Shown: positions 3 to 61,050 of the stretch, piece by piece
Numbering within the stretch: the stretch's first letter is position 1
Layout of the letters: each line of letters starts with the position of its first letter
DNA from: Promethearchaeati archaeon
GTDB taxonomy: Archaea; Asgardarchaeota; Heimdallarchaeia; Heimdallarchaeales; Heimdallarchaeaceae
Assembly (NCBI GenBank): GCA_013166775.1
Contig: JABLTJ010000007.1
Location: 32,001-96,000 of the forward strand
Reading direction: 5' to 3'
DNA length: 64,000 nucleotides
Made by a program: the position numbers and the translations under genes
Notes under the pieces: generated by a model
Databases searched by the model: none
What the model was told of the DNA's origin: nothing
The model's input: only the letters and a program-made list of their open reading frames with translations

Positions 3-251
3 AAAACAGAAACAGGTGAGCAAGTCAAAGCTGTTCTTGTAGCTGAACCAGGAAGCAAAGAACTTACACTTAAAGAAATCAGAGATTACTGTAAGAAAAG
101 CATGGCACCTTATAAAGTTCCTTCATCAATTGAGTATAGAGATGAATTACCTAGATCTACTGTTGGTAAAGTTCTGCGAAAAGATCTCAGAGCTGAAGAT
201 GTTATTACTCCTCCTCCTGAAGTAAAAGAGGAAGTAAAAGCTAAACAGTAA
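3..251 (+). CDS. Long-chain acyl-CoA ligase / AMP-binding enzyme, C-terminal fragment (runs off window start)
   Basis: Manual translation from nt 3: KTETGEQVKAVLV...MAPYKVPSSIEYRDELPRSTVGKVLRKDLR..*; matches the AMP-binding_C motif (LPrsxvGKvlR). Confidence 0.85.
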   Translation, partial: KTETGEQVKAVLVAEPGSKELTLKEIRDYCKKSMAPYKVPSSIEYRDELPRSTVGKVLRKDLRAEDVITPPPEVKEEVKAKQ

Positions 252-255
252 ATTA

Positions 256-31979: not shown

Positions 31980-32382
31980 ATCGAACCCTATCTGTTACTA
32001 AGATTGAACCTCAACAAAGACGTGATTGCAATCTCCTATATAAATTATATCCTTGGTTTTAAATGTAAAGCAAAGTGTCGGGAGTCTAATGAGTATTTTT
32101 AAACACGATTTTCTTACTCTTTATTATGAACCTAAAACCAAAAGAATATCTGTTTAGCAGATAAACTGCAAAAAAATAAAACCAATCCGAATCTGAAAAT
32201 TCAGCTTATGTCACTTACCACCTTCTTGTAAGATACATCCCTATTTTCTTGTGAATTTAGAATCTTCTACCCACCTTATTAATTGGACGAGCTTCCTATA
32301 AAATCACCTTCAAGCAATATTAGTTCAATGAAAAATCATTTATTTACTTATATTTTTAAAGACACGCAGAGAGAGTATCCTA

Positions 32383-58053: not shown

Positions 58054-58416
58054 TTATTTTGAGGTTTTCCCGCAGTTATTGCATGTTTTTGTACCTGGAT
58101 CCAACTTCATCCCACAAGAATCACAGAATTTTACTTCGGTTGATTTCTCAGAGATTTTTGAATCCTTTCCATTTGCTAAATCTTCACCTTTTGTGATGTC
58201 ATAAGTGCTTCTACGTGTTGGAGAAGTAGTTTGTCCAGTTTTCTTTAAGAAAGTGAATAGACCTATAACACCTAGAATAGCAAAGAATAGAATTATAGCA
58301 AATAGAATGTAGAACACAATCTTCCCGGTTACTATACCTAAAACTAATAATGTTATTAGAACTACAACAAATCCGAACAATACACCATTAAAAGAACGTC
58401 TGCTTCTGATTCTCAT
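58054..58416 (-). CDS. Two-TM protein with C-terminal double zinc ribbon
   Basis: FCDSCG-x9-CNNCG. Confidence 0.75.
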   Translation of the reverse strand: MRIRSRRSFNGVLFGFVVVLITLLVLGIVTGKIVFYILFAIILFFAILGVIGLFTFLKKTGQTTSPTRRSTYDITKGEDLANGKDSKISEKSTEVKFCDSCGMKLDPGTKTCNNCGKTSK

Positions 58417-58998: not shown

Positions 58999-60024
58999 TC
59001 ATTGCTTCAAAGCTCTTATCCAGAGATAAAGATCTTTCTTGCAATTAGGACATTTAGGATTTTTTTCGAGCCATGCTAAGATATGATTTTTATGAGCATA
59101 GACTTCGCAGCAAGGAGTTCGAACAACATCTTCTTTCTCTGAAGGTTTTAAATCCAATAAACAGACACAACAGGTTGGTCTGGAAGCAGTACACTTATCA
59201 CATTTTTCTTCTTTTGTTTCAAATAAATCCCCACATGAATAACAGAGTAATTCTTCAACATCAACTTCTCCATAATCATCAATGGAGATTTCCTGATATA
59301 ATAATCGGATAAGCTCCAATATTTGATAGATCTCATAAGGGGATTTTAATATTCCTGAAACAAACTTTCCATTAAAAGTCACAGATTTGATATTTAATGC
59401 TTGTTTCATAAGAATCGATCGTATATTTTGATTATTTGAAACAGTATCAATTAGAGATGATCGTGTTGAAAAAACATAATACAATGAACTAAATTTCGCA
59501 TTTTCTGTTTCTTTTGTATCTGTTTTTCTTACACTCAAAGCAAAAGGATATGCATTCTTTAGTATAGCATCAATTGTAATTATTTCTGATGATTTTAGAA
59601 CCAAACTGACATTAGCTAGGAAACTAAGCTTATTATCAGGCGGAAAATTAAAAGATACTCTAGGTGGAAATTCATAACTTGCTTGTATGTTAACAGCTCC
59701 TATTGTTTCCAAACTTGGTGTAATAGTTTCACTTAATACATGACTCTTATCAGTTGAAGTGTTTCTGTCTCTTAGTCTTTGAACTAATGCAAAATTCTGT
59801 CTGAAACTCTTTTCTTTTGTCATTCTAAAATACCATCCTGCTCCAAGAAATAGAGGTATGCCTACTATACCTGCTGTAATCATAAGAGTTAATGCATTAA
59901 GATTGGTTATTTTAAAAAGAAAGTAAAAAAGTGTTATAAATCCTCCAAACAAACCAATAACAATTATTATTGCAACTAATGTAGAAAAAGAAGATCTCCA
60001 AGTAGACTTAACAGACATTTCCAA
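58999..60024 (-). CDS. Membrane-anchored zinc-ribbon + RING finger protein (putative E3 ligase)
   Basis: 2 TM; CYSC..CDKC; CCVC-x16-CC-x4-H-x2-H-x3-W-x6-CPNC. Confidence 0.78.
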   Translation of the reverse strand: MEMSVKSTWRSSFSTLVAIIIVIGLFGGFITLFYFLFKITNLNALTLMITAGIVGIPLFLGAGWYFRMTKEKSFRQNFALVQRLRDRNTSTDKSHVLSETITPSLETIGAVNIQASYEFPPRVSFNFPPDNKLSFLANVSLVLKSSEIITIDAILKNAYPFALSVRKTDTKETENAKFSSLYYVFSTRSSLIDTVSNNQNIRSILMKQALNIKSVTFNGKFVSGILKSPYEIYQILELIRLLYQEISIDDYGEVDVEELLCYSCGDLFETKEEKCDKCTASRPTCCVCLLDLKPSEKEDVVRTPCCEVYAHKNHILAWLEKNPKCPNCKKDLYLWIRALKQ

Positions 60025-60157: not shown

Positions 60158-60667
60158 TTGAAACTTTTAAAAAGTAAAACAACTTTGATTTCTGTTTTTA
60201 TAATTTTGTTACTAGTCTCTACATCAAGTTTTGGAGTACCTAAAGTTCAATATTCTAGTAACACTATATCTATCCTATACGATTCGTCAGATGATATAGC
60301 TAAATACACATCTAAGAAATCATTCAATATCATAGAAAAATATGGGTATCAATCAGTAGAAATCAATCCAATTCATAGTTTAACTGATTTCAAAAAAACA
60401 ATAGCAACAAATCCTTATATCTTAATCTTAATTTTTCATGGAGATAGAAATGGAATTCAAATAGGATCAAAGAAAATAGATTGGGAAGGATTAAGTAAAA
60501 TTCTAAAAAATATCAAAACAAAAAATATCATAATAGAAAGTTGTAGTTCTGATGAAGTAAAAAAATCTATGAATGAAGAAAAATATGAACATATCTTGAG
60601 GGAAGAATTTTTTTACTTTTCTTTTTGTAGATTATTTAATAATCTTTCAAGATATCCTTCAAATTGA
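60158..60667 (+). pseudogene. Truncated secreted protein with a caspase/clan CD-like His-Cys dyad
   Basis: Signal peptide; ILIFHG and IIIESC; the C-terminus runs into the antisense strand of the MarR gene. Confidence 0.5.
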
Positions 60668-61050
60668 TCAATCTCTTCTGAAGAAAAATCTTGATAGAAT
60701 AATTTCGTCATATCTTGTGAAACTGTAAGATACTTATTAGATAGATCTTTGCTTTTTTCAGTTAGAAAGATTAGAATTTTTCTTCTGTCATCCTCTGAAT
60801 GGACTCTTTTAATATGTCCCGACTCATCTAATCTATCTAACATTGATGTTAAAGTAGATTTACCAAGAGCAGTTTTTTGAGATAATTCTGCAATAGAAAT
60901 TCCATCCTTTCTCCATAGTGGGAAGAGGATTCTTCCTTGTGCTGAATTAATATCTATTTCATGATCTGCAAGTAATTTAGTAAAGATTCGATTAGATAAC
61001 TGATGAATCTTTGATATAAGATAGCCACCTTTTCTTTGATGTTTCATCAT
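60613..61050 (-). CDS. MarR family transcriptional regulator
   Basis: QGRILFPLW..ELSQKTALGKSTLTSMLDRL...DDRRKILIFLTEK. Confidence 0.93.
   Translation of the reverse strand: MMKHQRKGGYLISKIHQLSNRIFTKLLADHEIDINSAQGRILFPLWRKDGISIAELSQKTALGKSTLTSMLDRLDESGHIKRVHSEDDRRKILIFLTEKSKDLSNKYLTVSQDMTKLFYQDFSSEEIDQFEGYLERLLNNLQKEK

Follow-up and report, generated by a model that had tools for sequence, protein, structure and literature searches.

The open reading frame (ORF) at 58999..60024 on the minus strand of a 64,000-nucleotide stretch of DNA (the window; positions 32,001 to 96,000 of contig JABLTJ010000007.1, assembly GCA_013166775.1) from an Asgard archaeon appears, on balance, to encode a RING-type E3 ligase that is tethered to the membrane and belongs to the archaeon's own ubiquitin (Ub) system, with substrates that, we infer, are probably membrane proteins. 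From its N-terminus, the protein consists of a two-helix transmembrane (TM) hairpin, a basic stalk helix, an alpha/beta middle domain, a four-Cys zinc ribbon, a variant RING finger and a short C-terminal helix. An earlier note on this DNA had proposed a membrane E3 candidate in which a pair of N-terminal TM helices is followed by a soluble domain, a ribbon and a RING with an odd ligand set. Each of these elements was followed up through homologue searches, structure prediction and a survey of the genome.

The RING finger, a C4H2C2 variant (residues 283-332; 59029..59178, minus strand), reads C285-C-V-C288, x16, C305-C306, x4, H311, x2, H314, x3, W318, x6, C325-P-N-C328, in which the ligands are C285, C288, C305, C306, H311, H314, C325 and C328. 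Its E2-contact residues are V287, W318 and P326, and a basic residue, K329, lies just past the last cysteine. The zinc ribbon ahead of it, C261-x2-C264-x10-C275-x2-C278 (residues 257-282; 59179..59256, minus strand), has the letters C261-YS-C264 and C275-DK-C278. Every element of this ribbon and RING pattern, including the Trp and Pro, stands in the translation at the spacing that had been claimed for it. The Pfam model zf-RING_2 (PF13639), a hidden Markov model (HMM), recognises residues 284-329 above its curated cut-off (E 3e-6, 27.8 bits against 27.3; model 2-44 of 44). By sequence, the best matches in the PDB are all catalytic RING-H2 E3s, with Arkadia first (1.6e-5), and the others are ARK2C/RNF165, RNF24, RNF126, ZNRF1, RLIM, RNF38, gp78 and Hrd1.

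The ligand set departs from the canonical RING-H2 order. In a phmmer alignment with the Arkadia RING, C305 corresponds to ligand 3, H311 to ligand 5, H314 to ligand 6 and C325/C328 to ligands 7 and 8, with a one-residue insertion, and the His that serves as ligand 4 in Arkadia falls opposite the variable E307. The position two residues past ligand 3 is E, G, S or Q in the family and is not conserved; C306, adjoining C305, is the sole conserved candidate and is therefore assigned as ligand 4. Read from the sequence in this way, zinc site 1 would be formed by C285, C288, H311 and H314 and site 2 by C305, C306, C325 and C328, so that C306 would stand in for the usual His at site 2, paired with C305, C325 and C328. 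The string CCVC opened the RING pattern in the earlier note, and its first and last cysteines are indeed conserved; C286 is I, V, S or T in relatives and hence not a ligand, which reduces the string to a plain C-x2-C. The canonical C3H2C3 order does not describe the protein, which has C-x2-C-x16-CC-x4-H-x2-H-x10-C-x2-C with a His as ligand 6. Prokaryotic RINGs lean to C4HC3 rather than C3HC4 (review, PMC11354881), and C4H2C2 is one step away from this tendency. Prokaryotic RING finger family 1 (PF14446) does not match the query, and matches 43 of 133 relatives at E<=1 (best 2.9e-9); NCBIfam gives no match for the query.

Conservation across the family points in the same direction. A word-indexed search of 5.8 billion proteins returned six close relatives, and a HMMER profile built from these six found, among 1.84 billion representatives, 358 proteins with E<=1e-3, 36 of them with E<=1e-30; 133 of the proteins found were aligned for the conservation counts. 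At least 93% of these homologues retain each of the residues C261, C264, C275, C278, C285, C288, C306, H311, H314, W318, C325, P326 and C328, and 130-131 of 131 retain each ribbon cysteine. C305 is kept in 95 of 133, and most of the remainder carry C-x2-C where the query has CC (29 + 2 sequences). The form CC-x4-H-x2-H occurs in 85 of the 133 relatives and C-x2-C-x4-H-x2-H in 31, which makes the odd ligand set of adjacent cysteines and two histidines a conserved trait of the family. Nearly all members (129/133) match zf-RING_2 at E<=1. At the E2-contact positions, the wider family has V, I or L at 287 in 130 of 131 sequences, W318 in 122 and P326 in 130, and the close homologues in the alignment carry K or R at residue 329. 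Mutation has shown that residues of the same three kinds, the Ile of C-x-I-C, the Trp and the basic residue past the last Cys, matter in a Caldiarchaeum RING E3 (PMC5654768).

Among 20 orthologues, all twelve Cys/His positions are invariant, as are V287, W318, P326, L334 and R337, the last two within the C-terminal helix (residues 333-341; 59002..59028, minus strand; helix 333-340 in the model). Mean pairwise identity in this set rises along the chain, from 27% in the TM hairpin, 33% in the stalk helix and 35% in the middle domain to 61% in the zinc ribbon and 72% in the RING. Judged by sequence, this combination of a constant, presumably catalytic tail and a variable front fits what is expected of an E3 whose recognition domain is diverging.

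The predicted structure agrees with a RING assignment. An AlphaFold model from only seven sequences (mean predicted local distance difference test, pLDDT, 50.9) was set aside, and the model used was built on the 133-sequence alignment; it has a mean pLDDT of 91.7 and a predicted template modelling score (pTM) of 0.70, with pLDDT of 94-98 over most soluble parts, including the RING. Residues 283-334 superpose on the RING of RNF165 (5ulk_C), which was solved in complex with UbcH5b~Ub, at 1.6 Å over 49/49 residues with 37% identity, and the Hrd1 RING (6a3z) superposes at 1.9 Å over 55 residues. Entries for Ark2C, RNF38 and RNF12 follow down the list. The model thus predicts the cross-brace RING fold that a ligase of this kind would have.

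Several observations weigh against a ligase. The zf-RING_2 score exceeds its cut-off by merely 0.5 bit; one zinc held by two adjacent cysteines would be unusual; and the residue past the last Cys is basic in just 66 of 131 sequences of the wider family. AlphaFold knows RING folds, so the sequence match alone leads one to expect, in part, a good superposition. When the ribbon and RING are taken together (residues 257-337), the best structural match is the 715-790 tail of WDR24 in GATOR2 (7uhy_C; Z 8.4, 2.7 Å, 75 aa, 27% identity), followed by the tails of yeast SEA (Sea4) and of IFT-A. Zinc tails of the GATOR2 type serve mainly in assembly. Finally, neither the query gene nor its paralogues have a Ub, E1 or E2 gene linked to them, so the assignment to the Ub system rests on the RING domain itself.

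Some of these points would suit a different role, in which the ribbon-RING tail serves assembly instead of catalysis: it would join copies or paralogues into a membrane-bound oligomer and would transfer no Ub. Besides the WDR24, Sea4 and IFT-A matches and the lack of a linked E2, such a role is favoured by weak matches of the GATOR2-type Pfam models zinc_ribbon_16 (PF17034; 75 of 133 relatives) and zf-RING_16 (PF17120; 19 of 133) at E<=1, with best values of 6.9e-5 and 5e-5, and by the presence of several paralogues per genome, some in tandem, that could pair. The query itself has no Pfam match to either of these models, the nearest solved proteins by sequence are catalytic RING-H2 ligases, and the E2-contact positions 287, 318 and 326 are kept well past the needs of folding. 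A tail that serves assembly without catalysis is considered unlikely.

A ligase needs partners, and the genome provides them. It holds four UQ_con, two ubiquitin, five ThiF and 18 zf-RING_2 matches. Two of the five ThiF matches sit in Ub clusters, and E1 genes lie at G000:C27:10489-11226 and C102:26607-27506. Two E2s (C1:94816-95358 and C102:21161-21697) keep the HxN motif and the catalytic Cys, with the loops YPFKPP/WTPA and YPYKPP/WSPS; these occupy the loop 4 and loop 7 positions that matter by mutation in the Caldiarchaeum E2 (PMC5654768). One ubiquitin ends in GG-F, and one ubiquitin-like protein (Ubl) ends in AG. The expectation that Asgard archaea possess Ub, E1, E2 and RING proteins, from which the earlier note had argued, therefore holds in this Heimdall-group genome, and an E1-E2-RING E3 cascade from Helarchaeia has been reconstituted (bioRxiv 10.1101/2023.07.25.550441).

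Further features of this machinery were seen in passing. The Ubl of the second cluster (G000:C102:26011-26364, plus strand) has an acidic N-terminal extension as well as an Ala-Gly end instead of Gly-Gly. Two UQ_con matches (G000:C27:8753-10174, minus strand, and G000:C1:162778-163437, plus strand) keep HPN without the catalytic Cys and are of UEV type. One of these two, of 469 aa and with a long coiled-coil tail, adjoins an E1 and the GG-F ubiquitin, and looks like the UEV-Vps23 proteins described for Asgard ESCRT-I. Three ligand classes, C-x-H-x2-H, C-x2-C-x4-H-x2-H and CC-x4-H-x2-H, can be told apart among the RINGs of the 18 zf-RING_2 proteins; in the printed sequences ligand 6 is never Cys but usually H, and a few have D, E or Q there. 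The majority of the 18 have predicted TM helices.

The membrane anchor is predicted to place the RING on the side of these E2s. The two N-terminal TM helices that had been noticed in the sequence are confirmed by hydropathy and by the model: TM helix 1 spans residues ~15-37 (59914..59982, minus strand; hydropathy peak 2.63; model helix 6-39) and TM helix 2 residues ~44-66 (59827..59895, minus strand; hydropathy 2.04). They are connected by an outside loop of 7-12 aa, and the hairpin is predicted to be N-in/C-in. TM helix 2 runs unbroken into a basic cytoplasmic stalk helix (residues 67-107; 59704..59826, minus strand), the two forming one model helix, 42-107, and the stalk lies within the stretch aligned to CCDC47 (65..252). 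The N-terminus of six full-length homologues bears 2-4 Lys or Arg and their loop 1-2, against 7-10 in the stretch of 25 residues that follows TM helix 2. By the positive-inside rule, these counts predict that both termini are cytoplasmic, and the RING would therefore face the E2s.

The soluble domain reported earlier is indeed present after TM helix 2; its fold had gone unrecognised. This alpha/beta middle domain (residues 108-252; 59269..59703, minus strand; pLDDT 91-98) is of the CCDC47/TtfA type, and the fold match begins at about residue 88, giving a domain of ~165 residues (about 88-252) that adjoins the membrane and is the quickly evolving part of the protein. It is likely to be the substrate- or partner-binding part. 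The model matches the cytosolic domain of CCDC47 (6w6l_7) at Z 11.9 with a root-mean-square deviation of 3.0 over 152 aa, a second CCDC47 entry (7tut_4) at Z 13.0 with the stalk helix included, a fungal CCDC47 entry (9i78_4) at Z 10.6 and mycobacterial TtfA (6t84) at Z 11.4 over 148/178 aa. Foldseek gives E 1.9e-4 for both CCDC47 and TtfA, and the next fold class, type III secretion chaperone-like, follows at Z 6-8.3. A structure search of the ESM Atlas, which holds models of a different origin, also returned TtfA and DUF3137 clusters among its matches. In CCDC47, TtfA and the query alike, a TM helix leads straight into the globular domain.

Sequence comparison gives no link to either protein. 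PF07946 (CCDC47) does not match the query at E<=1, and a genome-wide search with this model matched another gene instead. A 19-sequence profile of the middle domain found chance-level matches to tubulin chaperones among PDB sequences, and neither CCDC47 nor TtfA; hhalign of this profile against the genome's own CCDC47-like ORF gave a probability of 1.9%. PF11335 (DUF3137) has two weak matches elsewhere in the genome and none on the query gene. The likeness is therefore described as a common fold, as predicted by the model, and homology is left unclaimed. No literature joining CCDC47 with TtfA was found, in a search poor in subscription journals. As a separate observation, a 306-aa ORF (G000:C102:64373-65293; L045:1874-2794, plus strand) starts with a TM helix, continues with a globular domain and ends in a coiled coil rich in Lys and Glu. 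It matches Pfam CCDC47 over nearly the whole model but below threshold (E 4.2e-5, 23.3 bits, cut-off 27.7; model 8-314 of 326) and lies directly 3' of a Ras/Rab-like small GTPase gene (L045:1261-1824). By its sequence, it is a candidate Asgard CCDC47 homologue.

The fold of the middle domain also suggests another role, in which the protein is chiefly a helper in membrane-protein biogenesis or transport, as CCDC47 is at the translocon of the endoplasmic reticulum (ER) and TtfA is with MmpL3, and in which the zinc tail is a docking or regulatory add-on. The clear lead of CCDC47 and TtfA over the next fold class and the Atlas clusters agree with a helper, as do relatives in congeners that lack the RING. 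These RING-less proteins, of 190-280 aa (G019:C25:11913-12536, G029:C97:12632-13327, G027:C253:558-1190; P0061, P0066), match the TM and middle part of the profile alone (~19-241). Set against this are the missing sequence link to CCDC47 or TtfA, the absence of the latch coiled coil of CCDC47, and the distribution of conservation, with the RING as the most and the middle domain as the least conserved part, which fits a variable recognition domain joined to a constant catalytic module. A helper with an accessory zinc tail is considered as unlikely as the assembly module discussed above. A reading that joins ligase and helper, to which still less weight is given, is that the CCDC47-like domain might dock where the ribosome and SecYEG insert proteins, as CCDC47 does in the ER, or on membrane proteins still in assembly, which would make the protein a quality-control ligase acting co-translationally or at the assembly stage. 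If this were true, it would be an archaeal forerunner uniting a translocon helper fold, a membrane RING in the style of ER-associated degradation (ERAD) and a GATOR2-type zinc tail.

We propose the following mechanism for the ligase, in which the zinc contacts of the individual residues, the docking of the E2, the ligase activity and the class of substrate are all inferred. The two-helix hairpin would anchor the protein in the cytoplasmic membrane and leave both of its ends inside the cell, and TM helix 2 would continue as the basic stalk helix into the alpha/beta domain next to the membrane. At the end of the chain, the four-Cys zinc ribbon would pack on the RING finger, where V287, W318 and P326 would dock either catalytic E2 loaded with ubiquitin, and K329 would help to stabilise E2~Ub in its closed state. 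Target choice would fall to the middle domain; the target is probably a protein in the membrane or associated with it, and ubiquitin would pass straight from the E2 to this target or to the ligase itself.

The gene belongs to a family of paralogues. The earlier note had treated a single protein and had missed that the query is one of several paralogues. Five proteins of its own genome carry a PCC-x4-H-x2-H RING, the query among them, and three own-genome relatives share the middle domain with it at 26-32% identity. A survey of 399 genomes from the phylum recovered full-length orthologues in 11 further genomes of the genus (12 including a contig-truncated copy) of 24, at 34-42% identity within the genus. 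Most genomes of the genus, and one neighbouring genus, have paralogues that combine the middle domain, ribbon and RING, and these often form tandem arrays; the bare ribbon-RING module is widespread among Asgard proteins of varied architectures. In the tree, the query lies inside a 20-sequence clade with support 99, and the other own-genome paralogues lie in separate clades. In two congeners, a paralogue directly adjoins the query's orthologue, in tandem and on one strand (L026:11-1240 and 1285-2319; L029:252-1445 and 1480-2550).

Lineage-specific expansion, tandem arrays, patchy presence and orthologues that are merely 34-42% identical within the genus are also what a fast-evolving conflict or defence factor might display, with diverging paralogues marking viral or foreign membrane proteins. 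This role is regarded as very improbable: PADLOC gives no match, signs of mobile elements were not seen, the neighbours are housekeeping genes, and the slot between TldD and the acyltransferase is partly syntenic. The gene sits between a TldD/PmbA pair and an acyltransferase, and its orthologues in six other genomes have the same flanks. The GNAT, 2TM zinc-ribbon, MarR and PNPOx neighbours are not conserved beside orthologues, and no conserved operon partner was found; the two paralogues on the same contig have unrelated enzymes as neighbours.

Two neighbouring ORFs were also recorded. The gene at 58054-58416 (minus strand), which shares the strand of the RING gene and lies 22 bp 3' of the GNAT gene, encodes 120 aa with two TM helices and, at the C-terminus, a CxxC..CxxC zinc ribbon; it was not found beside orthologues. 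The ORF at 60158-60667 (plus strand) encodes 169 aa with a signal-peptide-like start, overlaps by 55 bp with the convergent MarR gene (60613-61050, minus strand), at the 3' end of that gene, and has no significant Pfam or PADLOC match.

The ORF list and translation give 341 aa from TTG 60024, with the stop at 58999-59001. By sequence, the true start is probably ATG 60018, two codons further on (339 aa), which is favoured because homologues open with MS.K and GGTTGG lies just upstream of this ATG. The host is a metagenome-assembled genome of Heimdallarchaeota (3.85 Mb, completeness 88.7%, GC ~31%). Sequencing runs that carry the gene are three marine-sediment DNA runs, all from one study; the listed carriers include no RNA run, which counts as evidence neither way.

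Asgard archaea and Aigarchaeota are already known to have RING ligases and a functional E1-E2-E3 cascade, and the ligases tested so far are small soluble operon proteins. The E3s of Caldiarchaeum subterraneum (srfp; PMC5654768) and of the Helarchaeia operon resemble the query as archaeal RINGs that work beside eukaryote-like Ub, E1 and E2 and have equivalents of its contact residues (I30, W58, R69). They are small, soluble, encoded within Ub operons and active in vitro, whereas the query is membrane-anchored, has a large extra domain and a ribbon, follows another ligand pattern and is unlinked to Ub genes. In the literature searched, which covered few subscription journals, no description was found of an architecture that combines TM helices, the CCDC47/TtfA fold and a ribbon-RING, nor any paper that links Asgard, RING, GATOR2 and zinc.

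The RING-H2 E3s Arkadia/RNF111, ARK2C/RNF165, RNF38, Hrd1 and gp78 are close in the RING itself, by the HMM score over its cut-off, 29-37% identity, superposition at 1.6-2.8 Å, C-x-[VI]-C, a Trp four residues past ligand 6 and a CPxC-basic end. They differ in that their ligand 4 is a His two residues past ligand 3, where the query has a Cys adjoining it, and in that ligand 6 of the query is His and not Cys (C4H2C2 against C3H2C3); the query also has one extra residue between ligands 4 and 5 and a four-Cys ribbon fused ahead of the RING. A C4H2C2 finger with adjacent Cys ligands poses a structural question for RING chemistry.

In the membrane-proximal part, CCDC47 (6W6L, 7TM3, 7TUT, 9I78) and TtfA (6T84) share with the query a TM helix and a cytoplasmic alpha/beta fold (Z 11.4-13.0, 148-178 residues aligned) at 9-10% identity, with no HMM or profile link, and CCDC47 has a C-terminal latch coiled coil where the query has the ribbon-RING. 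The GATOR2/SEA (WDR24, Sea4) and IFT-A tails resemble it in the ribbon packed on the RING and in overall shape, but they cap beta-propeller or solenoid scaffolds, and the query falls below threshold for their Pfam models. The union of a CCDC47/TtfA fold with a GATOR2-like ribbon-RING provides clonable material on the origins of eukaryotic modules.

The eukaryotic membrane RINGs (Hrd1/gp78, MARCH and the RNF13/ZNRF3 type) are the nearest in design, with a TM-held cytoplasmic RING that is presumed to act on membrane proteins. The earlier likening to MARCH, RNF and Hrd1 ligases stands as a functional analogy and fails as family membership, with two TM helices and no RINGv match. The Hrd1/gp78 type of ERAD ligase is ruled out by two TM helices against a polytopic domain of six or more, and RINGv/MARCH (C4HC3) by the spacing CC-x4-H-x2-H and by Pfam matches that include no RINGv at E<=1. 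In contrast to these proteins, the query has a two-helix hairpin, no polytopic channel-like domain, no RINGv signature and no ectodomain. The likeness is one of design, and any evidence of common descent is confined to the RING.

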